Source: Candidatus Helarchaeota ASGARD archaeon Hel_GB_B (GTDB lineage Archaea; Asgardarchaeota; Lokiarchaeia; Helarchaeales; HEL-GB-B). From it: a DNA stretch of 19,610 nt. Made by a program: the position numbers and the translations under genes. The stretch spans positions 1-19,610 of the forward strand of contig SUPR01000069.1 in NCBI GenBank assembly GCA_005191425.1, read 5' to 3'. Below, one piece after another: positions 3,469 to 19,610 of this stretch. Below the pieces are notes generated by a model. The model was not told the DNA's origin. It made no database searches and saw only the letters and a program-made list of their open reading frames with translations. Each line of letters opens with the position of its first letter. Positions within the stretch are counted from its first letter, which is position 1.

Positions 3469-3727
3469 GATTATTCTATTTCTTTTTTTATTCCTAATTA
3501 ATTTATAAAATATTGTTTATATTAGTTAGACCATTAAATATTTAATAATTTTTTACCATAAATTAATAATTGATTTAAAAAGTTATAATTTAATTGATAA
3601 GTGAACCATTTAAAGACATAACGTAAAATTTCAAAAACCCTTAAATTTACAATTTTTTATTTAAAATTATATTTAATTGGGTCATTTTACAAAATAATAA
3701 ATATTATTTTTAGGAAATGGTTTAAAA

Positions 3728-4180
3728 ATGTTTAAATTAGAAGAAAAAGAAGTAATATTAGATGCAATAGATAGAAAAATTCTAAAATATCTAGCAAATA
3801 ATTCAAGGTCGAGCTATAAAACTATGGCTAAAAAAATTGGTATATCAGAAACTACAGTTAAAAATAGAATTGTAAAATTAATTAATAATAAAGTTATCAA
3901 GAAATTTACCATCAAAATTGATTTCAGAAAAATTGGGCAAAGCGTTGGTTGGATTTTAAAATTAGTTGTTGATCCTTTTAAAATTCAAGAAATCGTTGAA
4001 AAATTGTCTTCTTTTGATAATATTGTTTCCATTTATGAAGGAGCGGGTATTGAAAATTTAATCGTTAAAGGATATCTAAAAAATATGACTGAAATTAATC
4101 AATTTCTAAAAAATATTATTTATTCTTTTAAAGGAGTAAATGAAGCCAAGCTGGAAATATTAATTAATGAAATAAAATGA
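3728..4180 (+). CDS. Lrp/AsnC family transcriptional regulator
   Basis: N-terminal HTH LDAIDRKILKYLANNSRSSYKTMAKKIGISETTVKNRIVKL, linker IKKFTIKID, C-terminal RAM-like domain; 150 aa. Confidence 0.92.
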   Translation: MFKLEEKEVILDAIDRKILKYLANNSRSSYKTMAKKIGISETTVKNRIVKLINNKVIKKFTIKIDFRKIGQSVGWILKLVVDPFKIQEIVEKLSSFDNIVSIYEGAGIENLIVKGYLKNMTEINQFLKNIIYSFKGVNEAKLEILINEIK

Positions 4181-5696: not shown

Positions 5697-5912
5697 TTAT
5701 TTCTTTTCGGACAGCCACCATTTAAGATATTCTTTTTTTCGCTGCTCTTCTTTCCAGCCATTTCCTCTTGCTTCATCGATATAATTTTTGTACTTTTCTC
5801 TCATTTTCTCGATTTCTTTGTACTTTAATGCTAATCCACATCTTTGGCAAATATACCTTCTTTGGCTGCCGTCCCATTTCATATAACCGGCACATTCTGG
5901 ACAAACTGGTAT
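5697..5912 (-). CDS. Small archaeal CxxC...CxxC zinc-finger protein (71 aa) with a basic helix and a KEYLKWWLS tail; probable ATA start
   Basis: Upstream of the track's ATG (5882) the frame continues as ATA-CCA-GTT-TGT-CCA-GAA-TGT-GCC-GGT-TAT (I-P-V-C-P-E-C-A-G-Y). This supplies the first CxxC to pair with CQRC. AGGTGA lies 6 nt upstream of the ATA at 5912-5910. Confidence 0.8.
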   Translation of the reverse strand: MPVCPECAGYMKWDGSQRRYICQRCGLALKYKEIEKMREKYKNYIDEARGNGWKEEQRKKEYLKWWLSEKK

Positions 5913-6141: not shown

Positions 6142-6174
6142 GGATATTATTTAGATATTACTCGGATATTTTAA
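6142..6174 (+). repeat. Three GATATT direct repeats at exact 11-bp period (candidate operator) upstream of the GTPase operon
   Basis: GGATATTATTT / AGATATTACTC / GGATATTTTAA, with GATATT starting at 6143, 6154 and 6165. The third copy runs into a TATA-like TTTTAAG at 6169-6175. Confidence 0.5.
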
Positions 6175-6210
6175 GCAATTTCGCGAGAAAATAAAATAAT
6201 TATTAAAGAT

Positions 6211-6215
6211 GGTGA
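6211..6215 (+). promoter_or_regulatory. Shine-Dalgarno GGTGA for the Arf-like GTPase
   Basis: GGTGA at 6211-6215, 7 nt before TTG at 6223. Confidence 0.7.
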
Positions 6216-6222
6216 TTATAAC

Positions 6223-6723
6223 TTGGTCTCGATCAAAACTACATTTATTGGTTATCCAACAGTAGGGAAGACTACTTTGATTGCATTATTAAAAGGGAAA
6301 GTACCTGACTTAAATTATGAGCCAACGATGTTAATTGATTTTGAAACAATTCAAATGAAGGAACATGAAATAAAAATCTGGGATATTGGAGGACAGGCTT
6401 CTTTTGAACCATATTGGGACCAATTTGTTGAAAATTCAGTATTAAATGTGGTAGTTACCGATTCAACACCACAAAATGTTCTAAAAACAAAAATGATTAT
6501 AGAAAAACTGAATAAAGTTAAAGGTTCAAGAACTATTGCTATAGCAAATAAGCAAGATATTGATGGACGCTTGAATTCAAATAGAATTGAAAACATACTT
6601 AGAGTACCTACATATCCAATGGTCGGGATTGACCCAAATAATAGGGAAAAATTATATTATATACTTATTAGAGAGTTATTAATAGCATGCGGGACAGATC
6701 CGAACGAATTAGGTGATATCTAA
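6223..6723 (+). CDS. Arf-like small GTPase (Asgard type)
   Basis: G1 GYPTVGKTT, G2 YEPT, G3 WDIGGQ followed by Arf-like SFEPYWDQF, VVVTDST, G4 ANKQD, and an atypical G5 region PMVGID. TTG start with SD. Confidence 0.9.
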   Translation: MVSIKTTFIGYPTVGKTTLIALLKGKVPDLNYEPTMLIDFETIQMKEHEIKIWDIGGQASFEPYWDQFVENSVLNVVVTDSTPQNVLKTKMIIEKLNKVKGSRTIAIANKQDIDGRLNSNRIENILRVPTYPMVGIDPNNREKLYYILIRELLIACGTDPNELGDI

Positions 6724-6724
6724 A

Positions 6725-7246
6725 ATGGAAATGGAGAATATTAATACAATAGCTTTAATTGGATTTGATATAACAAAAGGGCCTGTTCTTAGATGGAAAA
6801 AAAGTTATAATAAAAACAATATGATAGATGTAGACCAATTTTATACAAATTTTTATGTCATATTTCGCGGCGGAGGTAAATTTAAACCAAAAATGATGGT
6901 ATTCGATCAATTCCAAATAGTAGCGTTTCAAAATGAAATGGATTTATTGTGTGTCTTTTTGGATAACAAAATTAATGAAGAACACTTTAAAGAAATTAAA
7001 AAAATAGCAGAAAAAGAAAGTTCCAAATTCATTTCCAGTTCTACTAAATTAGAAACGGAATCGGACCTAATAAAAGAAAAATTAATTCAACTCCTAAAAG
7101 AACAAGAAAAATTAACAATAAAACAATTAAAAAAGCATTTTCCACTATCCTATTGGACGATTAGAAGATACCTGACAGATCTGGAAGAAGACGGCATAAT
7201 CGTACGAGATAAAGAACATAAAGAACATTTATGGTCAGTAAAATGA
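6725..7246 (+). CDS. Longin/uDENN-like N-terminal domain fused to a C-terminal DeoR-like winged helix-turn-helix
   Basis: N-terminus IALIGFDITKGPVLRW resembles the F-x4-GP beta-hairpin of longin/uDENN/Npr2 domains; predicted order beta-beta-alpha-beta-beta-beta-alpha. C-terminus LTIKQLKKHFPLSYWTIRRYLTDLEEDGIIVR matches the DeoR-type S-x2-TIRR-x-L-x2-LE-x2-G HTH. The track's GTG at 6713 lies inside the SD AGGTGA (6711-6716); the likely start is ATG 6725. Confidence 0.7.
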   Translation: MEMENINTIALIGFDITKGPVLRWKKSYNKNNMIDVDQFYTNFYVIFRGGGKFKPKMMVFDQFQIVAFQNEMDLLCVFLDNKINEEHFKEIKKIAEKESSKFISSSTKLETESDLIKEKLIQLLKEQEKLTIKQLKKHFPLSYWTIRRYLTDLEEDGIIVRDKEHKEHLWSVK

Positions 7247-7282
7247 ATTTCATTTGAAATTGTTTCTTTTTTCTCTCTTTAT
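7247..7282. terminator. Short convergent intergenic gap with a T-rich tract, possible archaeal oligo-T terminator for the + strand operon
   Basis: TGTTTCTTTTTTCTCTCTTT follows the stop at 7246; 36 nt separate the convergent stop codons. Confidence 0.35.
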
Positions 7283-7861
7283 TTATTTTGATTGTATTAA
7301 TTCAATATTATGTATATTCTTGTTAATTAACAATTTAATTAGTGCATTAAAGAGTTCATTTACTCCCCGATGTGTTTTGCAAGATGTTTCAAAAAACTGC
7401 ATTTTTAATTCAAGAGCTTTTGAAGACCCTGATACATGAGAAATTTTTCGTTCATTTTCTAAATCAATCTTATTTCCAATCAAGATACCAATAGTTGTTG
7501 ACATTTTTGAATTATCTATTGCTTCTTTATACCAATAGTTAATATTTTGAAAAGATCTTGGATTTGTTATATCGTACATATACAGGATAGCCTTAACTCC
7601 AGAGTAAAAAATTGTCCGTACTTTTGAGAATTGTAATTGCCCAGATAGATCCCAAAAAATTAAACTGATATGCTCAACACCATCGAAAGTTTTTATATCA
7701 GCCTCTTTTGAAGTTATTTCAACTCCTAAAGTTGGTAAATATTCATCGCGATAAATTTTTTTTGTATATTTTTGGATCAGAGTAGTTTTTCCGACAGCAG
7801 GATCACCTATTACTACTATTTTATAAGGTGTCCTTGCGTAATATTTCTTTTTAACCATCAT
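7283..7861 (-). CDS. Rab-like small GTPase
   Basis: G1 GDPAVGKTT, G2 YLPTLGVEI, G3 WDLSGQ, G4 GNKID, G5 ETSCK. RabF-like segments LGVEI, SLIFW, FYSGV and YMYDIT. No C-terminal Cys prenylation motif. Confidence 0.92.
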   Translation of the reverse strand: MMVKKKYYARTPYKIVVIGDPAVGKTTLIQKYTKKIYRDEYLPTLGVEITSKEADIKTFDGVEHISLIFWDLSGQLQFSKVRTIFYSGVKAILYMYDITNPRSFQNINYWYKEAIDNSKMSTTIGILIGNKIDLENERKISHVSGSSKALELKMQFFETSCKTHRGVNELFNALIKLLINKNIHNIELIQSK

Positions 7862-10079: not shown

Positions 10080-10979
10080 ATGACAACTATAATGACAGAA
10101 AATAATTTGAGAATAGGGCCGGCTGGGATACCTACTAATCAATTTAGAAAAGAATACGAAGTATTAATTGATAATTGTAAAAATAATGGATTTACTGCCT
10201 TAGAATTAGAATTTTTGAATATTAAGGATATTTTTCTTTATCCTGATCCACAAGATTTAATAGAATTAAATTTATTAGCCAAGAAATATAATATAAAATT
10301 AAGTATACATGCTCCTTATTATATTAATTTAGCAACTAATAATCCTAATATAATAAAAAATTCATTTAATCATTTATTAAAAACTCTTAATGTCTCAAAA
10401 TCATTGAATTGTCCGGTTGTTTTTCATGCTGGGTTCTATCAAAAAGAGTCTAAACATAAATCAGTCCTTAATGTAATTGATAACCTAAAAAAATTTAGAA
10501 AACACCTAAAAAATAACACTAATTTAAACCTTAAAAGGTTATTTATAGAAACACCAGGTAAATTTACTGCAGTAGGGACGATAGAGGAACTCATTGAAAT
10601 TGCTAAAGTAAGTAATTGCTTAATTTGTATTGATTGGGCGCATCTTTATGCTAAAAATCCATCAAAAATTACTAAAAATAATATAGTGTCGTTAATTAAG
10701 AAAATTGAAAACGAATTAGAAATGGATTATTTCCATATGCATATTTCTGGAATTAAACGAAACAGAAATGGTGAAATTAAACATATTCCGTTTATTAAGT
10801 CTTTTTTTCCATTGGATATTGTAATAAATACTCTTAAAGAAATAGGTATTAAAGGTACTCTTATATGTGAGAGCCCAAATAGGTTTAAAAATGATACCAA
10901 TTATTTATTATCATTATATAAAACTGGAAAATTACCATTTTCTAAATTAAAAAAACTTGATGATTTTATTGCTCTATGA
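10080..10979 (+). CDS. nfo: Archaeal-type endonuclease IV (AP endonuclease family 2, TIM barrel)
   Basis: RIGPAGIP, SIHAPYYINL, VFHAGFY, FIETPGK, CIDWAHLYA, HMHISG, EIKH and ICESP retain the expected metal ligands. Alternative ATG at 10092. Confidence 0.85.
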   Translation: MTTIMTENNLRIGPAGIPTNQFRKEYEVLIDNCKNNGFTALELEFLNIKDIFLYPDPQDLIELNLLAKKYNIKLSIHAPYYINLATNNPNIIKNSFNHLLKTLNVSKSLNCPVVFHAGFYQKESKHKSVLNVIDNLKKFRKHLKNNTNLNLKRLFIETPGKFTAVGTIEELIEIAKVSNCLICIDWAHLYAKNPSKITKNNIVSLIKKIENELEMDYFHMHISGIKRNRNGEIKHIPFIKSFFPLDIVINTLKEIGIKGTLICESPNRFKNDTNYLLSLYKTGKLPFSKLKKLDDFIAL

Positions 10980-12182
10980 TTTCTCCGATTTTAAACGTTG
11001 ATTGACTAGTTCATAAGCTTTTTCCTCTAAAACTTTTGCAGGTATATCAAATAAAGTCAGTCTACTACGACGCCCCCTTCTTCCCTTCCCAATTTGTTTT
11101 GTTATTTTGTTAATAATGCCATATTTGACTAATGCATCGATATAATTTCTATATGTATTAAGAGAGTGTGGCTCAATTTCCAATTCCTCACAAGTTACTT
11201 TATAATAATCGTAAGATTCCATAATACTTGTTGATATAATCCCTCTATGCTTGAGCCTCTTTGCAATCCCTATAGCACTTATCAATTCTTGTGTCCGTAA
11301 AGTATTTAACATCTCAGGTCTTAAAACGGGATATACATTGTTCTTAGCTTCCCTTACCATCTCAGCTGAAATTTCCTCCTTGTTCTCCATATCAGCTAAT
11401 TTTCCACATTGATATAATATTTCAATCATATGTCGTGTATTTTTTGTTTCATTTACAATATCTATTATCAAGTCTTTTATGTCATCAGAAATCGCACCAG
11501 GCTTAAATGCCAATTCTGTTCTGAAATCAATTATATTTTTAAATGTTTCTCTATCATAAACATCAAGCTGTATTAAATCAGTTATTTTCCCTTTTAATTG
11601 CATAGCCAAATATGATTTATACTCCTCAGGACGACTAATTATTATCATTGAAATCGGTGAATAACCAAACCCATAACTCTCATAAGAATGAATCAAACTT
11701 AAGATGTCATTTCCACCTAATAAAAACGCTTCATCTAAAATTAAAAGAATACTTTTGTTCTCATTTTTTAATCTGTTAAATATTTGCGTTAATAATTCAT
11801 TATCGGACAAACCTCTACTTGAGATACCAAAATGCTTCCCTGTAATTTCTCTTAATATTGCGCTTTTTGTCCGGAATGAATAACAATTAAAATAAAAAAG
11901 CATAACGTCCTTATAAGGTTTGATTGCCTTAATAAAACCTTCACCAAACAACCTCGCCAATGAAGTTTTACCTACGCCAACTGGACCGGTTATTGCAACA
12001 TTAATATTGTATGCCTTCTTTTCCATAATTAATGGTTTATAATCTCTGCTCAATCTCGCTAATTCTTCATCACGACCAGGTAACCGGGGCGGTATATAGG
12101 TCAATAATAATGTTGACTCGTCCTTAAAGATTGATGACCCTAATACATTTCTCTTTATTATATCATTATTAAATTCTCTCAT
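10974..12182 (-). CDS. cdc6: Cdc6/Orc1 AAA+ ATPase with C-terminal winged helix
   Basis: SIFKDESTL..YIPPRLPGRDEEL, Walker A GPVGVGKTS, NC motif, Walker B LILDEAF, sensor-2-like NTRHMIEIL, and winged-helix tail GRRGRRSRLTL. Confidence 0.93.
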   Translation of the reverse strand: MREFNNDIIKRNVLGSSIFKDESTLLLTYIPPRLPGRDEELARLSRDYKPLIMEKKAYNINVAITGPVGVGKTSLARLFGEGFIKAIKPYKDVMLFYFNCYSFRTKSAILREITGKHFGISSRGLSDNELLTQIFNRLKNENKSILLILDEAFLLGGNDILSLIHSYESYGFGYSPISMIIISRPEEYKSYLAMQLKGKITDLIQLDVYDRETFKNIIDFRTELAFKPGAISDDIKDLIIDIVNETKNTRHMIEILYQCGKLADMENKEEISAEMVREAKNNVYPVLRPEMLNTLRTQELISAIGIAKRLKHRGIISTSIMESYDYYKVTCEELEIEPHSLNTYRNYIDALVKYGIINKITKQIGKGRRGRRSRLTLFDIPAKVLEEKAYELVNQRLKSEKS

Positions 12183-12270
12183 TTTTCCCTAATCATTTAA
12201 ACTCTTAATTTAATATTTTTCGATTACATTTCTGTTAATATTATTTTATATTTTCAATTACTTATATATA

Positions 12271-12444
12271 CTAATTTTCTTCTTCTTCTTTTGAAAATAA
12301 AAATCCTTTTTCTTCTAAATCATCTAATATAGTCTTTACTTCATCAGACTTCATATTTAATTCTTTTGCAATATCTTCTGGTAATACTCCATCCTCACTT
12401 TTCATGACCAAATATAGAACGTCTTTCTCTTTTTTACTTAACAT
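12271..12444 (-). CDS. Stand-alone 57-aa winged helix-turn-helix protein (MarR/TrmB-like) with acidic tail
   Basis: MLSKKEKDVLYLVMKSEDGVLPEDIAKELNMKSDEVKTILDDLEEKGFL is a classic L-S-x2-E-x2-V-L ... IA-x2-L ... V-x2-IL-x2-LEEKG wHTH pattern. ATG 12444 follows GAGTGA, which contains the track's GTG start. Confidence 0.8.
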   Translation of the reverse strand: MLSKKEKDVLYLVMKSEDGVLPEDIAKELNMKSDEVKTILDDLEEKGFLFSKEEEEN

Positions 12445-12893
12445 TGTTTTCACTCAAAAATATCAAGTATTATATTCTCTTAAATTTGTATTTTTTTGCT
12501 GATTTCCATCTATAAATACATCAATTATATTGATTTTTTAAAAATTACTGTTTTTATTTTATTTTTATCGTTTATATTTTTTATTTGTTTAAATTAGAAA
12601 TTATTTTCAGAACTAAATTCAAAAAAATTTAGGTGATAAGTTGTAATACAATTTGATTCTCGTATATATTATATATTTATTGTAATCATCTATATTATCT
12701 AATGTTTTTATATCCAATTATCCCATAAAATACTTGTATATTTTAAATAATATTATTTTAATTATATTATTTATTGATTAGATGTGCATTATTTTCAACT
12801 TTAATTGCAAATTTTGGAATAAATCTAAATTTTTTAATTTGATTTTAAAATTATTATTAAATAATTATAGATGATCAATGAATAAATTTAACA

Positions 12894-14571: not shown

Positions 14572-15696
14572 TTAGTATAGAGTATCTGCCCCACATCTAG
14601 GACATTTTAGTTGGTCGTATCTAATAATCCATCCACACTTTTTACATCTTGTTATTGAAGAATCTGGTTGTATATTTGTCAACTCTTTAAAAGTATCATC
14701 GTCCATTTCTGCTGGTTTTAATATTTCATATAAGACATTTTTTTCTTTATCTTCATCTTTCTTATTTCCGCTTGGTTTTAATACCTGTGAAACTTCTTTT
14801 TTAGCTGGCTTAGAATAGTATTCATCTTCATCAGATTCAATTACAACGCGCCCGATTTTTGGTTTTGCTTTTTTCTTTTGAGCGATTGGTGATGCCATAG
14901 GACTTGAAATTTCTGAAAATTGATCTATTTCGCCACCAATAATGACTTGGTGAACTTCAGTTTCAGGCTTGGAAATATTCGGGGGTTCGGGTGGAGATGA
15001 CATTATTTGAGGTGGCTCAGGTGGAGCTTCTGCAATTTGAGGTGGCTCAGGAAATCTATTATCAGATTGAATTGGTATGGGCTTTTCTATATCTTCGTCA
15101 TCTATTAATACATTACTCAATTCGGATATAATTTCAGATTCGTCTAAAGAATCAATTGGAATCTCACTTAATTTTCTCGGAATTCGACTTTTTAACTCTA
15201 CTTCCCATTTTTTAAGTTTTTCATTTAATTCTGCAGTATCCACTAATAAATTTTCGTTGACCAGAAATATATAGAAATTATTTTCTTTATTGTCTATTTC
15301 ATAACTGATTTTTAATTTTGGGTGCATTAGATACTTTCTTTTAAATATTTCGTCATGCCCAATAAATATTTCTTCAATTTTGGAATTTGGTATCTCGATT
15401 ACTATTGGTTTTGAATAATCAATATTACAGATAGGTCTTAGTTTATTGGTATTTAATGCATCTTCTTGTAAATTAAACGAAATAATTTCATAACCTTTGA
15501 AAATTAACTTATTATTTAATAACCAAATGCGACCTCGATATTTAAAATTAAAATTCTTATTATTTATTACTTTAAATTCAAAAGTATCCGGAGTAACTAG
15601 ACAATGACTGTCCAATACTACCTCATCATCATTTTTTTCATTCGGATTTAATTCAATCTCTATTTCTAAGTTATTGCCAGATATAAGATCTATCAT
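14572..15696 (-). CDS. Modular protein: PH/GRAM-like N-terminal domain, acidic and Pro-rich disordered linker, C-terminal zinc ribbon
   Basis: GAGGT SD 6 nt before the ATG. GRIWLLNNKLIFKG resembles the GRLYLTNxRLIF strand of GRAM/GLUE-type PH domains, closed by the Trp-containing helix LNEKLKKWEVELKSRI. The C-terminus is CKKC-x10-CPRC. Confidence 0.65.
   Translation of the reverse strand: MIDLISGNNLEIEIELNPNEKNDDEVVLDSHCLVTPDTFEFKVINNKNFNFKYRGRIWLLNNKLIFKGYEIISFNLQEDALNTNKLRPICNIDYSKPIVIEIPNSKIEEIFIGHDEIFKRKYLMHPKLKISYEIDNKENNFYIFLVNENLLVDTAELNEKLKKWEVELKSRIPRKLSEIPIDSLDESEIISELSNVLIDDEDIEKPIPIQSDNRFPEPPQIAEAPPEPPQIMSSPPEPPNISKPETEVHQVIIGGEIDQFSEISSPMASPIAQKKKAKPKIGRVVIESDEDEYYSKPAKKEVSQVLKPSGNKKDEDKEKNVLYEILKPAEMDDDTFKELTNIQPDSSITRCKKCGWIIRYDQLKCPRCGADTLY
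14965..15054 (-). repeat. 3 x 30-nt intragenic tandem repeat encoding (F/P)PEPP(Q/N)Ixxx
   Basis: FPEPPQIAEA-PPEPPQIMSS-PPEPPNISKP. Forward ATTTGAGGTGGCTCAGG is identical at 15005-15021 and 15035-15051. Confidence 0.85.
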
Positions 15697-15928: not shown

Positions 15929-18900
15929 TTAAATAGGAAGTGGTAATAATTCTTCAGCTACGTATTCCTTTTTCTTTTCTTTTGATGTCATTCTTGTAAT
16001 AGTAATTACTGCGGATACTGCTCCAATAGCTGCGACAAGAATTATAACAATTATCATCCATGGAAATGGTTCACCAACAACATTATAGACATATGAATTA
16101 CTGATAGTAGTATGACCATATTTGTCCACTACAATTATTGTAAAGTTTACTGAAGCTCCAGCTGTTTGGCCTGGAATTTCTCCACTCCAGATTTGCGTAC
16201 CATTTGGATATTCCATTATCAATAGCATATCAATTATTCGAGGAGATTCGCCACTTACTGAATAACTTATATAGACTCTATCTATACCGCCAAGGTCATA
16301 CACAGTTATATTGATGACAACTGGATTACCTACAACTACGGATGTAGAGGGATATCGAATAGAATCTGGATAAATTATAGGATCTGTTGTATCTACAGTC
16401 AGCGTTATCATGTTAGAGAATGAACTCGAATGGTTTTTCTCATCAAATGCAATTATTATTATATAATAAAATCCATCCATAATATTATAGAATGAATAAG
16501 TTGTATTAAATCTACCAAATATTGTAGCATTTGCAGTTATACCAGAAACGCTTGTAAAGTTATAAGTTAAAATATAAATTTCATAATATGCTACATCTGC
16601 CCCATAACTACTATTTGAAGGAGAACCCCACATTAATGTTATATTTTCGCTACCATCGGCGGTTAAATTTAATAGATTAATTGGTGGATCAGGACTTATA
16701 GTATCATTTATTGTAATATTTATTGGAGATGAAAATAGACTTTCTTTGTAATATCTATCTATTGTAGTCACATAATATGACCATGGCCCATCAGGGACAC
16801 CATAATCAATAAAATTATATGTTGATGTCCCTAGATTATGGGCAATATATCCTACCAATATGTGAGATGTCCCACCGATTACATCTCTGTAAATATTATA
16901 TCCAGTTATGAAAGCATCGGGATTTGTTGTATTGTCTGTCCACTGCAGAAAGATGTCTCCATTACCATTATCATTTATTTGACTCCAAATTGGCGATGCT
17001 AAAACAATTGTATTATTAATTATATTTGATGGAGCCGATTGTTGAAATTTCTCGTCCATTGCAATTGCATAATAATAATATGTCCCTATTTGGAGGTCTG
17101 CATCTGGATAACTTGTTATTTCTAAGGTTGAACTATAATTTGCTGCTATCAACTCCCAAGGACCTGCACTACTGATATTTGACCTGTAAATATTGTAATA
17201 CATTACGTCTTTATCAGCAGGCTTTTGTATTAATATAATCACCAATCTTCCAATTGCTGGTTGTGGAATTAAGGTCGGTGGCCCAGGTGGCTTTATATCT
17301 ATAGGAGTACCATTAAATTGTTCACTTGGATTTCCTTCATTTTCTTCTTCGTCTACTGCAGTGACTCTATAATAATACATAGTATATTCAGTTAGCCCTG
17401 TGTCATAATATGAATTACTACTTGTTTGAGCAATTAAATTACCACTATTTGGAACAAAATTAGAAGTAGTGCTCCTATAAATATTGTAATGGTCTATATC
17501 ATTTTCCGGATTTATACTCCAGTTTATTATTAAAATATCACCTGTCCCTTCATTATAAGCATGGCCATTTGTTACATTTGAAGGAGCTATTATATCACCT
17601 GATGTTGAGTTAAAAGCAAACCTTGTGGTAGAATCCCCTGCTTCATCTGCTACTGCTATTTTGTATGAATATAGCATTCCGTCCAATAAATTTGCTTCAC
17701 TATCTATATACATTAATGTATTATTATCATAAATACTTTTTATTAAAGTTGACCCATCCGTTAAAAAGCTGGGGTTATATCCACTATACCGATAGATATT
17801 ATACCTATAGAAATCTGGTGGTGTTGAAGCAGTCCAAATTAACTTCATAGACCCATCATTTTGAGCCAATACTTTAAATGTATAAACTGAACTTGGTCTT
17901 ACAGTATCTATAATATCAACAAATGCTTCATTTCCACCCGTTGCTATGTTATTATTTTCATCTACAGCTTTTACTTGATAATAATATCTTACCCCAGTCC
18001 CATTTAATGAAGGATCATAATCAAAATAAATTGTACCAGTAGTATTGCCAATATAATTTGAAGAATTAGGTGTGAATCCAGAATATGCTGACCTGAATAT
18101 CTTATAATACATTATATCAGGTGTCCCAGGTGATGTCCATGTTAACCTTACATACCCGCCAAGAATATTTGAAGCTGACAATGTTGTTACATTTGCAGGT
18201 GGTTTGTTATCGCCACTCGGGATTATTATTGGTGAATATTTTGGTGGCGCTGTTGAATTATATCCTACTTCATCATAAACCCTTATCTCGTAATAATATG
18301 CTACTCCATCAATTAAGTTATCACTTGAATCTGTCCAATAGTTTATTGACTTATTTAAAATCGTCTGAACCAAAGTAAAAGATCCATTCCTCCATATCTC
18401 ATACTTTACAAAGTCATTTTCTTGAGCTGCCGTCCAATTTAGATATATACTTCCATTTATGTTAACTGCTGAAAAGTTCTCAGGTTGTAATGGGGGTACT
18501 GTATCTTCAGGTTTGCCACTCTTCTGAGTTATTGGTGGTAAATAATTTCCATCATCGTCCACTGAAATTACTTTATAATAATAAGTTATCCCGTCTGTTA
18601 ATCCTGTATCTACATAGAATACTTTTGTATAAGAAACATTTGCAATGTTATTCTGAGAACTCGGTGTAAATCCAGGTGTTGTACTTCGATATATCCTATA
18701 TTCAAACATATCAGGTGCAGAAACATAATTCCAAGATATATTTAGTGTATTTCCAGTTGGAATTACTACTACTGTTAATGTTGTTATAGCACTTGGTGGT
18801 ATTGAATCTATTGGAATACCACTTTTAACTGTTGAATTCTCACCTTCATTTAGGACTTCATCTAAAGCCGATACTTTATACCAATATTTTTTACCATTTG

Positions 18901-19610
18901 TGAGGCCAATATCTAAATAATTGGTTTTATTTGTACTTATTATAAGAGTCCAATCTTCTGTTGTACTATTCCTATATAACCTATATTCTTGAAAATCACT
19001 GGCACTACTTGGGTTCCATGTTATATTTAATTTATTACCTTCTGGTAATACCGTTATTGGACTTGCGACCCAAGTAACCTGCGGAGGTGGTGTTATGTCC
19101 GTTGGAATTCCGCTTTCTATTGTCGAGTTCTGCCCTACATTTGGGACAGGACCACCATCGTCTACTGCCGCTACTTTATAATAATATTTCCTATTATCTA
19201 CAAGCCCGCTATCAGTATATGAAGTGGTCGAAAGAGACGCTATGAAAGCCCATGACTCCACTGTCGAGTTCCTATACAATAGATAATGGTCTAAATCGGG
19301 CGCTGAACTTGCATTCCATGATATCACTAACCGGTTCCCAGTACCTGGATTGGTCACCACCACATTTACTACTTGACTGGGCGCTACTGTATCTGCCGGA
19401 GTGCCGTTCACAATACTCGAAGCATTCCCTTCATTATTTTTCTCATCAAATGCAGTAATCAAATAATAATAAGTCATATTATCTGTCAGTCCAGTATCAT
19501 TATAATAAATATTTGTAGTTGAGTCTATAAAATAATTGGGCAACGCGGTCAGGCTTGGGTCTGTTGACCTATATATATTATAACCTGCTACATCGTCCAC
19601 TGTTATACTT
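15929..19610 (-). CDS. Large single-pass membrane surface protein with tandem fibronectin type III repeats (5' end outside the window)
   Basis: The frame stays open past the track's GTG (19600) to the window edge. It has 11 FN3-like units (first partial) of about 100 aa with a D-x2-PP...W...Y-x-IYR...DTGL...YYY-x-V-x-A-x-D pattern, then an Ig-like domain, a TM helix FPWMIIVIILVAAIGAVSAVITIT and a 21-aa tail. Confidence 0.92.
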   Translation of the reverse strand, partial: SITVDDVAGYNIYRSTDPSLTALPNYFIDSTTNIYYNDTGLTDNMTYYYLITAFDEKNNEGNASSIVNGTPADTVAPSQVVNVVVTNPGTGNRLVISWNASSAPDLDHYLLYRNSTVESWAFIASLSTTSYTDSGLVDNRKYYYKVAAVDDGGPVPNVGQNSTIESGIPTDITPPPQVTWVASPITVLPEGNKLNITWNPSSASDFQEYRLYRNSTTEDWTLIISTNKTNYLDIGLTNGKKYWYKVSALDEVLNEGENSTVKSGIPIDSIPPSAITTLTVVVIPTGNTLNISWNYVSAPDMFEYRIYRSTTPGFTPSSQNNIANVSYTKVFYVDTGLTDGITYYYKVISVDDDGNYLPPITQKSGKPEDTVPPLQPENFSAVNINGSIYLNWTAAQENDFVKYEIWRNGSFTLVQTILNKSINYWTDSSDNLIDGVAYYYEIRVYDEVGYNSTAPPKYSPIIIPSGDNKPPANVTTLSASNILGGYVRLTWTSPGTPDIMYYKIFRSAYSGFTPNSSNYIGNTTGTIYFDYDPSLNGTGVRYYYQVKAVDENNNIATGGNEAFVDIIDTVRPSSVYTFKVLAQNDGSMKLIWTASTPPDFYRYNIYRYSGYNPSFLTDGSTLIKSIYDNNTLMYIDSEANLLDGMLYSYKIAVADEAGDSTTRFAFNSTSGDIIAPSNVTNGHAYNEGTGDILIINWSINPENDIDHYNIYRSTTSNFVPNSGNLIAQTSSNSYYDTGLTEYTMYYYRVTAVDEEENEGNPSEQFNGTPIDIKPPGPPTLIPQPAIGRLVIILIQKPADKDVMYYNIYRSNISSAGPWELIAANYSSTLEITSYPDADLQIGTYYYYAIAMDEKFQQSAPSNIINNTIVLASPIWSQINDNGNGDIFLQWTDNTTNPDAFITGYNIYRDVIGGTSHILVGYIAHNLGTSTYNFIDYGVPDGPWSYYVTTIDRYYKESLFSSPINITINDTISPDPPINLLNLTADGSENITLMWGSPSNSSYGADVAYYEIYILTYNFTSVSGITANATIFGRFNTTYSFYNIMDGFYYIIIIAFDEKNHSSSFSNMITLTVDTTDPIIYPDSIRYPSTSVVVGNPVVINITVYDLGGIDRVYISYSVSGESPRIIDMLLIMEYPNGTQIWSGEIPGQTAGASVNFTIIVVDKYGHTTISNSYVYNVVGEPFPWMIIVIILVAAIGAVSAVITITRMTSKEKKKEYVAEELLPLPI

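Follow-up and report, generated by a model that had tools for sequence, protein, structure and literature searches.

Two adjacent genes on the forward strand of contig SUPR01000069.1 from Candidatus Helarchaeota archaeon Hel_GB_B (assembly GCA_005191425.1) form a translationally coupled operon; the 19,610 nucleotides analysed are referred to throughout as the window. The first of these, here called gene A, encodes an Arf-family-like small GTPase. The second, gene B, encodes a protein whose N-terminal half is modelled as a longin-type domain and whose C-terminal half is predicted to be a winged helix-turn-helix of the DNA-binding type. The operon is preceded by an operator-like triple repeat, and orthologous GTPase genes stand directly upstream of the longin-type partner even where the surrounding genes are unrelated. 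The pair appears to be a GTPase with its longin/roadblock platform, to which a DNA-binding-type output domain and a candidate operator have been added. We propose, at what we judge to be about even chances, that it acts as a GTPase-gated, self-regulating DNA-binding switch in which the GTPase docks on the longin domain, the upstream boxes are recognised by the winged helix and the nucleotide state alters their occupancy.

Genes A and B are translationally coupled

The ATG of gene B is located 1 nt past the stop codon of gene A and 8 nt past an AGGTGA hexamer, a Shine-Dalgarno-like site that is embedded within the final codons of the GTPase gene (coordinates of all features are collected in Table 1). 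The encoded protein contains IALIGFDITKGPVL close to its N-terminus and SYWTIRRYLTDLEEDG close to its C-terminus. An initial annotation, made from the letters of this DNA alone, had recorded the embedded hexamer, the 1-nt distance from the stop and both of these stretches, and every item of that sequence observation proved to be exact. We then compared the junctions of related loci. A GGAGG/GGTGA-like core was present no more than about 15 nt from the start of the partner gene at 27/27 junctions examined, and since none of the 27 lacked it, the coupling of the two genes is not a matter of chance. The distance from stop to start in these loci ranges from -26 to +22 nt, with a mode of -4 that corresponds to an ATGA overlap. 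The translational coupling claimed in the initial annotation is thus supported both by the junction in the window and by its relatives, and genes A and B constitute a two-gene operon.

A longer reading frame for gene B, starting from GTG at 6713, was considered and rejected because this codon falls inside the Shine-Dalgarno-like site and disagrees with the starts of the homologues. At the other end of the operon, an ATG at 6209 (ATG-GTG, 14 nt 5' of the gene A TTG) is out of frame, and the homologue in locus L003 begins with an in-frame ATG-GTG. The TTG start of gene A could reflect either a real change of start codon or an assembly error of 1 nt. Transcripts of archaea terminate at oligo-T tracts, and the T-rich spacer that follows gene B is likely to be the end of the two-gene transcript.

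The gene A product is predicted to be a soluble Arf-like GTPase

The Pfam Arf profile matched the gene A product at 65.8 bits (cut-off 22.3; 4.4e-18) and ranked before Roc and Ras. When a profile built from 27 orthologues of this GTPase was searched against the PDB, the best 60 matches were all Arf or Arl proteins, headed by Arl3 (4.4e-24), and the Arf-like identity given in the initial annotation was thereby confirmed. The motifs are likewise those of the Arf family: a P-loop (G1) reading GYPTVGKT, a switch I with its threonine (Y32-x-P34-T35), a G3 motif WDIGGQ of the WDxGGQ type and a G4 motif NKQD of the NKxD type. Among the 27 orthologues the columns G10, P12, G15, K16, Y32, P34, T35, D54, G57, D80, S81 and N109-K-Q-D112 are invariant and Q58 is nearly so; in view of these columns the nucleotide-binding and catalytic apparatus looks intact. 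The proline that occupies the position of Ras Gly12 is invariant in the same set.

No N-terminal amphipathic helix was found in the gene A product, which starts four residues before strand 1 and whose residue 5 aligns to residue 15 of Arl3. Because this helix is missing, we describe the protein as Arf-like rather than as a canonical Arf. It is predicted to be a soluble Arf-family-like GTPase with G1-G4 intact and without the membrane-anchoring N-terminal helix. The GTPases of the pair make up one orthologous group with common signatures, such as VTDSTPxNVL and AIANKQD.

The N-terminal half of gene B is modelled as a longin-type domain

An AlphaFold2 (AF2) model of residues 1-100, computed from an alignment of 20 sequences, had a predicted local distance difference test (pLDDT) score of 86.7 and a predicted template modelling (pTM) score of 0.79. 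Its strands (residues 6-15, 19-27, 57-59, 64-70 and 73-79) and helices (36-48 and 85-99) are arranged in the order strand-strand-helix-strand-strand-strand-helix, which is the longin order, and no helix precedes strand 1. Longins have a second C-terminal helix (alpha3), which packs at the place taken in roadblock proteins by their N-terminal helix. Within residues 1-100 of gene B a single helix follows strand 5; in the full-length AF2 model, where the packing between the domains is of low confidence, the next helix (112-127) forms part of the winged helix. In that full-length model, built with 10 close homologues, the N-terminal half was poor (pLDDT ~50).

For structural comparison we used an exhaustive search, scored as VIA-align Z, together with a re-examined Foldseek list. 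In both searches all listed matches to the N-terminal domain at Z of 8 or above were longin or roadblock proteins, and the alignments to such chains at Z 8-9.9 span 86-96 residues. They comprise an MK-D1 roadblock (Z 9.9), MP1/p14 (9.4), TRAPPII chain 7u05_D (9.2), GATOR1 chain 7t3b_C over residues 6-151 (8.9), Fuzzy (8.9), MON1 (8.8), MglB (8.4-8.8), a Lokiarchaeal longin (8.7) and the mu and sigma subunits of AP (8.3-8.9). Judged by its length, 7t3b_C is probably NPRL2. Since the best scores are tied within about one unit, the fold class is secure and no assignment to a sub-family can be made from them. A model of the domain from the ESM Atlas gave the same picture of the fold. Searches with the sequence of the domain yielded zero matches in the PDB at E up to 10 and, in Pfam, only sub-threshold stray matches to DENND11 (2 members, 0.0086) and DUF7200 (3 members, 0.01). 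Across 30 sequences of the family, residues D15, G19, P20, Y44, F47, G50 and P55 are invariant. The longin-like N-terminal half that had been read from the sequence is upheld by the confidence of the model, by the order of its elements and by the identity of its best structural matches, and residues 1-100 are accordingly described below as a predicted longin-type fold.

The C-terminal half of gene B is predicted to be a DeoR-type winged helix

Residues 118-161 of gene B matched Pfam HTH_DeoR at 35.1 bits (1.1e-8; cut-off 21) and HTH_11 at 28.3 bits (cut-off 25). The recognition helix reads SYWTIRRYL and the wing reads VRDKEHKEHLW. In the full-length AF2 model this region was predicted with pLDDT 81-91 and consists of helices at 112-127, 132-136 and 143-155 and strands at 159-162 and 169-172, that is, the three helices and two-stranded wing expected of a DeoR-type domain. 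Foldseek paired it with the DNA binders Z-alpha (root-mean-square deviation 1.1 Å over 61 columns), ArsR/SmtB, MarR, MecI and CodY. Residues L124, F139, I146, L153, E154, R161, K163 and W170 are conserved throughout the class to which the window belongs, and most members of the class carry K-K-G-R at the tip of the wing. Profile, model and structural matches all agree with the DeoR-like half named in the initial annotation, and the C-terminus of gene B is firmly predicted to be a DeoR-type winged helix of the DNA-binding type.

CodY also headed the Foldseek list for the full-length gene B model, and IclR effector domains were present among the fold matches of the N-terminal domain at Z 7.2-7.6. 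CodY, which combines GAF and winged-helix domains, and the IclR-type regulators resemble gene B in joining an alpha/beta sensor domain through a helical linker to a winged helix, and longins themselves fall within a wider PAS/GAF-like group (PMC4917890). Such likenesses would fit gene B being an ordinary one-component regulator whose N-terminal domain senses a small molecule, as GAF, IclR and profilin-like domains do, with the GTPase merely a co-regulated neighbour. We consider this explanation improbable, however, because every listed match at Z of 8 or above is a longin or roadblock protein, and because one GTPase lineage remains paired with the family across classes despite change or loss of the C-terminal domain (see below), so that it is the N-terminal domain with which the GTPase is associated. 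Fold and gene linkage both suggest a GTPase platform as the sensor of gene B, in contrast to the small-molecule pocket of CodY and the IclR-type regulators.

The GTPase and the longin-type domain stay together in unrelated contexts

The closest homologues of gene B are labelled Helarchaeota, Lokiarchaeota or Promethearchaeota, and an exhaustive profile search of 1.84 billion representative proteins recovered only 22 clusters with the N-terminal domain. By six-frame search, the domain was detected in 167/400 Asgard species genomes. These include 143 of the 160 genomes of the window's class, Lokiarchaeia, where it is nearly always present in single copy (by family: f1 1/1, f2 3/3, f3 2/2, f4 1/1, f5 13/14, f6 121/135, f7 2/4). 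Beyond this class, strong matches were obtained in families f10, f11, f20, f21, f28 and f29, and the same search did not find the domain in f13 (0/31), f16 (0/22) or f19 (0/19). Two closed, single-contig genomes of ~4.4 and 6.0 Mb (G134 and G137) possess the family.

An orthologous GTPase gene was found directly upstream, on the same strand, in 44/52 distinct loci, which amounts to 44 of the 48 strong loci having upstream sequence. With longest open reading frame (ORF) calls, the gap between GTPase and partner is -53 to +10 nt in 43 of the 44 loci and +52 nt in the remaining one (L035). The eight loci without an adjacent GTPase consist of two contig ends (L023 and L008, the latter showing a C-terminal fragment of the GTPase), two weak matches (L046 and L047) and four short longin-only forms (L043-L045 and L049). 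Close relatives share the whole neighbourhood and therefore carry little weight for conservation of the pair. In distant loci with unrelated contexts (L004, L005, L006, L009, L011 and L048-L057) the GTPase is still immediately upstream. The initial annotation had staked its proposal on the gene pair being conserved, and conservation does extend beyond syntenic relatives.

Throughout the window's class the C-terminal domain is a winged helix. In f28 and f29 it is replaced by a tail of ~85 residues with a GLGxKR helix-hairpin-helix (HhH)-like motif, and the GTPase is still directly upstream. This tail had no match in the ESM Atlas, and against Pfam it gave HhH matches below threshold only (HHH_5, 0.17; IMS_HHH, 0.024 and 0.052); its reading as a helix-hairpin-helix is offered as a lead. 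At locus L048 of f10, a 131-residue longin-only protein with no C-terminal domain directly follows the GTPase. Since the C-terminal domain varies or is lost while the GTPase stays, the constant association is the one between the GTPase and the longin domain. Short GP-longin forms (~112-150 residues) without an adjacent GTPase also occur, in f11, f20 and f21, and these may be paralogues with another partner.

A candidate operator precedes the operon

The three GATATT boxes lie ~55-80 nt upstream of the GTPase start, and the third runs into a TATA-like TTTTAAG. In the 3.54-Mb genome (28% G+C) the triple described here is the only one with GATAWT at 11-bp spacing. The genome contains 24 pairs at 11 bp, which is at the level of chance and similar to other spacings. 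Upstream of 27 orthologous operons GATAWT was observed 49 times, as compared with 19.6 +/- 4.4 expected from first-order Markov shuffles, and 0/1000 shuffles reached 49, with the qualification that related loci are not independent. The spacing was informative as well: the best triple of each locus had on average 3.7 mismatches at 11 bp versus 5.2-5.4 at spacings of 8-10 and 12-14, and triples with two mismatches or fewer occurred in five loci at 11 bp and in zero at any other spacing. Members of other families are among these loci, L054 and L033 being examples, and their proteins share ~25-32% identity with that of the window. Enrichment and phase hold across lineages with protein identities of only ~30-40%. 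These counts are good but indirect evidence that the triple is a candidate site for a specific protein.

The uniqueness and position of this repeat also bear on a second alternative, in which the pair is a polarity, segregation or nucleoid-positioning module resembling MglA/MglB and the C-terminal domain is a non-specific DNA tether without any role in transcriptional regulation. MglA/MglB is the closest known system by gene layout: a GTPase and a roadblock-type partner share one operon, the partners belong to the same fold superfamily, and the highest-scoring structural matches to gene B include MglB homodimers (Z values given above). Moreover, the exchange of the winged helix for an HhH-like tail in two families, and its absence in others, would fit a generic tether better than an operator reader. 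On the other hand, the profile of the gene A orthologues matches Arf/Arl and not MglA, and the domain of gene B has the longin topology without the N-terminal helix of roadblock/MglB proteins, so that the pair contains neither a roadblock partner with such a helix nor an MglA-type GTPase. Gene B, unlike MglB, additionally carries a DNA-binding-type domain. The phased GATAWT triple, too, points to a specific site, since it occurs once in the genome, at the promoter of the operon itself. A module of the MglA/MglB kind is therefore quite unlikely in our estimation.

A proposed GTPase-gated switch and the points against it

Longin domains dock small GTPases in MglB, Ragulator, TRAPP, Mon1-Ccz1, GATOR1 and folliculin. 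More generally, longin and roadblock domains serve as GTPase platforms (PMC3747258; PMC10933270). In the GTPase-gated switch that we favour, the longin domain of gene B would bind the co-translated GTPase and would probably be dimeric, as other longin/roadblock platforms are. The GTPase would dock on the face of the longin domain where the GP turn and the F-x-G-G...P loop, both invariant, are located. The DNA target of the winged helices would be the three GATAWT boxes, phased at 11 bp, that lie ahead of the operon next to its TATA-like element. The nucleotide state of the GTPase would then shift the occupancy of this operator, such that the pair would regulate at least its own transcription. 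Candidate roles for the longin domain toward the GTPase are those of a GTPase-activating protein (GAP), a guanine nucleotide exchange factor (GEF) or a passive effector. A prediction of the complex, made with GTPase alignment A6 and longin alignment A5, returned a score of 0.01 (mark 0.32) and speaks neither for nor against binding.

Several observations weigh against a DNA-binding switch of this kind or against catalysis by its longin domain. In NPRL2/3 and ESCRT-II the winged helices have proteins rather than DNA as their ligands. Some orthologues consist of the longin domain alone, next to the GTPase at L048 and lacking it at L043-L045 and L049, which means that the winged helix is not essential everywhere. 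The GATAWT triple was not found in loci L011, L036, L053, L055 and L056, and since the boxes are AT-rich and located at promoter positions, their conservation could in part be a promoter signal. With regard to catalysis, work on Ras G12P indicates that a proline at the Gly12 position may hinder an inserted arginine finger. In the gene B family no arginine column is invariant, the equivalent finger position not having been mapped residue by residue. The basic positions vary: position 23 is R/K/E, position 48 is R/K/Q/N/M, position 56 is K/R/L/Q/M/V, and position 54 is also variable.

Resemblance to the eukaryotic longin GAPs

In gene B, G19-P20 is invariant among the 30 sequences and opens strand 2, as it does in longins of the GAP type. 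In folliculin, GATOR1 (NPRL2) and C9orf72-SMCR8 the catalytic longins have a GP motif at this position, as do some Asgard longins, and other longins are without it; the GP-motif GAPs also have a conserved arginine finger (PMC12290439). NPRL2 and NPRL3 combine an N-terminal longin domain with C-terminal winged helix-turn-helix repeats (Levine 2013, PMC3747258), so that the initial annotation was right that NPRL3 ends in such a domain. By architecture, NPRL2/NPRL3 is the closest known system to gene B.

A third alternative follows this resemblance closely. The pair would be a minimal module of the NPRL2/FLCN/SMCR8 type, in which the GP-longin domain is a GAP for the Arf-like GTPase and the winged helix binds protein or dimerises and does not bind DNA. 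Consistent with this, the GP motif is invariant and placed at the start of strand 2 as in the GAP-type longins, the order of domains is identical to that of NPRL2/3, and GATOR1 chain 7t3b_C is one of the tied best fold matches. The client of C9orf72-SMCR8 is an Arf GTPase (PMC12290439), and gene A is Arf-like. One Asgard cluster in the ESM Atlas had an NPR2 annotation among 19% of its neighbours, at weak scores. Against such a module stands first the lack of an invariant arginine: after the invariant Pro55, the protein of the window has a lysine at position 56 where many relatives, including those of the largest family, have an arginine. Pfam NPR2 (PF06218) gave no match in 20 members of the gene B family at E up to 10 and none in 400 Asgard genomes at 1e-5, and in the window's own genome its only match was at chance level (12 bits) and located elsewhere. 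In addition, the winged helix scores above the cut-off for a DeoR-type DNA-binding domain and has DNA binders as its best structural matches, and a conserved repeat precedes the operon. We regard a purely GAP-type module as unlikely.

The resemblance to NPRL2 that had been noted at the N-terminus of gene B is therefore only partly sustained. The position of the GP motif and the shared plan of a longin domain followed by a winged helix-turn-helix bear it out, whereas membership in the NPRL2/GATOR1 lineage is not established, because Pfam NPR2 finds no match, no arginine is invariant and the fold scores fail to separate NPRL2 from roadblock, TRAPP and adaptin longins. The likenesses to NPRL2/NPRL3 (GATOR1; yeast Npr2/Npr3), FLCN and SMCR8/C9orf72 extend to an Arf/Rag-class small GTPase as client, which in the gene pair is a candidate client. 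In contrast to NPRL2/NPRL3, gene B has only 173 residues and a single winged helix, it has neither TINI nor other intermediate domains and no DEPDC5-like partner, and the conserved arginine and the Pfam NPR2 match are missing. Its winged helix belongs to the DeoR type of prokaryotes, with an operator-like repeat ahead of it and the GTPase in the same operon.

Other features of the window

The operon is flanked by genes on the opposite strand. The convergent Ras/Rab-like small GTPase (192 residues; Pfam Ras, 3.1e-42) was considered as a second client of gene B. It is kept in L002 and is absent from L003 and from all distant loci, and for this reason we do not count it as part of the module. Divergent from the operon is a gene for a small zinc-ribbon protein with a weak match to Pfam Zn_Ribbon_TF, which is kept in close relatives (in L002 at 3712-3939, minus strand). 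Its ATG-started ORF in the window is without the first CxxC found in the L002 homologue, so that the true start may be a non-ATG codon further upstream. Farther away, an Orc1/Cdc6 gene with a Cdc6 lid and winged helix is followed by a 711-bp non-coding gap that could contain a replication origin. The window also contains a gene for a 374-residue protein with Pro-rich PPEPP repeats and, at its C-terminus, a zinc ribbon (Pfam Zn_ribbon_3, below cut-off), and the 3' part of a gene for a very large surface protein (more than 1220 residues, cut by the window end) with many N-glycosylation-rich repeat units of ~95 residues and a C-terminal membrane anchor.

Table 1. Features of the gene pair, its neighbours in the window, and variant family members at other loci (positions in the last group are those of the respective locus).
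Feature	Position	Strand	Remarks
GATATT boxes, operator-like	6143, 6154, 6165 (span 6143-6170)	+	exact 11-bp period
GGTGAT, Shine-Dalgarno-like site of gene A	6211-6216	+	6 nt 5' of TTG; from sequence
Gene A, Arf-family-like small GTPase, 166 residues	6223-6723	+	TTG start; stop TAA 6721-6723
AGGTGA, Shine-Dalgarno-like site of gene B	6711-6716	+	within final codons of gene A; from sequence
Gene B, longin-type and winged-helix protein (predicted), 173 residues	6725-7246	+	ATG 6725; TGA 7244-7246
Longin-type domain (roadblock/longin superfamily; modelled), gene B residues 1-100	6725-7024	+	AF2 model, structural matches
DeoR-type winged helix-turn-helix (predicted), gene B residues 112-173	7058-7243	+	Pfam, AF2, Foldseek
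T-rich spacer, gene B end to end of convergent Ras-like gene	7247-7282	no strand	sequence only
Small zinc-ribbon protein	5697-5882	-	divergent from operon
Ras/Rab-like small GTPase	7283-7861	-	convergent
Orc1/Cdc6	10974-12182	-	
Non-coding gap beside Orc1/Cdc6	12183-12893		711 bp
Protein with PPEPP repeats and zinc ribbon	14572-15696	-	
Very large surface protein, 3' part	15929-19609	-	
GLGxKR-tail member, L050	1947-2516	-	
GLGxKR-tail member, L052	2126-2707	+	
GLGxKR-tail member, P0018			
GLGxKR-tail member, P0020 (= L011)	3480-4061		
Short form without GTPase, L043	1483-1872		
Short form without GTPase, L044	1429-1821		
Short form without GTPase, L045	1426-1878		
Short form without GTPase, L049	2315-2653		

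Discussion

In a full-text literature search we found no report of an Arf-like GTPase coupled to a protein of the longin-winged-helix type. The assertion of the initial annotation that no example of this fusion had been described stands for the literature searched, but it has to be narrowed, since NPRL2-like Asgard longins fused to various domains have been described in general terms (Liu et al. 2021, 10.1101/2020.10.19.343400). The same authors reported a separate Asgard operon with LAMTOR1-like, Rab-like and DENN genes, which is not the pair analysed here. Longin- and roadblock-GTPase fusions and stand-alone longins and roadblocks from the same phylum belong to the same fold classes (PMC10933270; 10.1101/2020.10.19.343400). 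The arrangement in the window differs from the longin-GTPase fusions in that the longin domain is fused to a winged helix and the GTPase is encoded by a separate, translationally coupled gene. In MK-D1, GTPase genes do not as a rule share operons with genes for roadblock or longin proteins (Tran et al. 2024, PMC10933270), and the gene pair is therefore an exception.

Asgard archaea possess genes for dozens of small GTPases resembling those of eukaryotes, together with longin and roadblock proteins, and the question is which regulator serves which GTPase and what they control. Whether operons can reveal the targets of these GTPases was asked by Dey et al. 2016 (PMC4917890). A pair that is found class-wide offers a GTPase together with its matching partner, a candidate for the DNA target and a direct test of GAP activity in GP-motif longins that are not eukaryotic. 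It is conceivable, if rather unlikely, that the ancestor of the eukaryotic longin GAPs has in this pair a minimal living relative, one that combines a GP-longin with a winged helix as NPRL2/NPRL3 do and still works in Asgard archaea as a small-GTPase-gated transcription factor. If so, the nutrient-signalling longins of the GATOR1 and folliculin type would descend from a prokaryotic DNA-binding switch, and eukaryote-like GTPases of Asgard archaea would directly control gene expression rather than membranes. Should the switch proposed here gate DNA binding, gene regulation would be the task of at least one GTPase of the 'trafficking type' in the archaea most closely related to eukaryotes.

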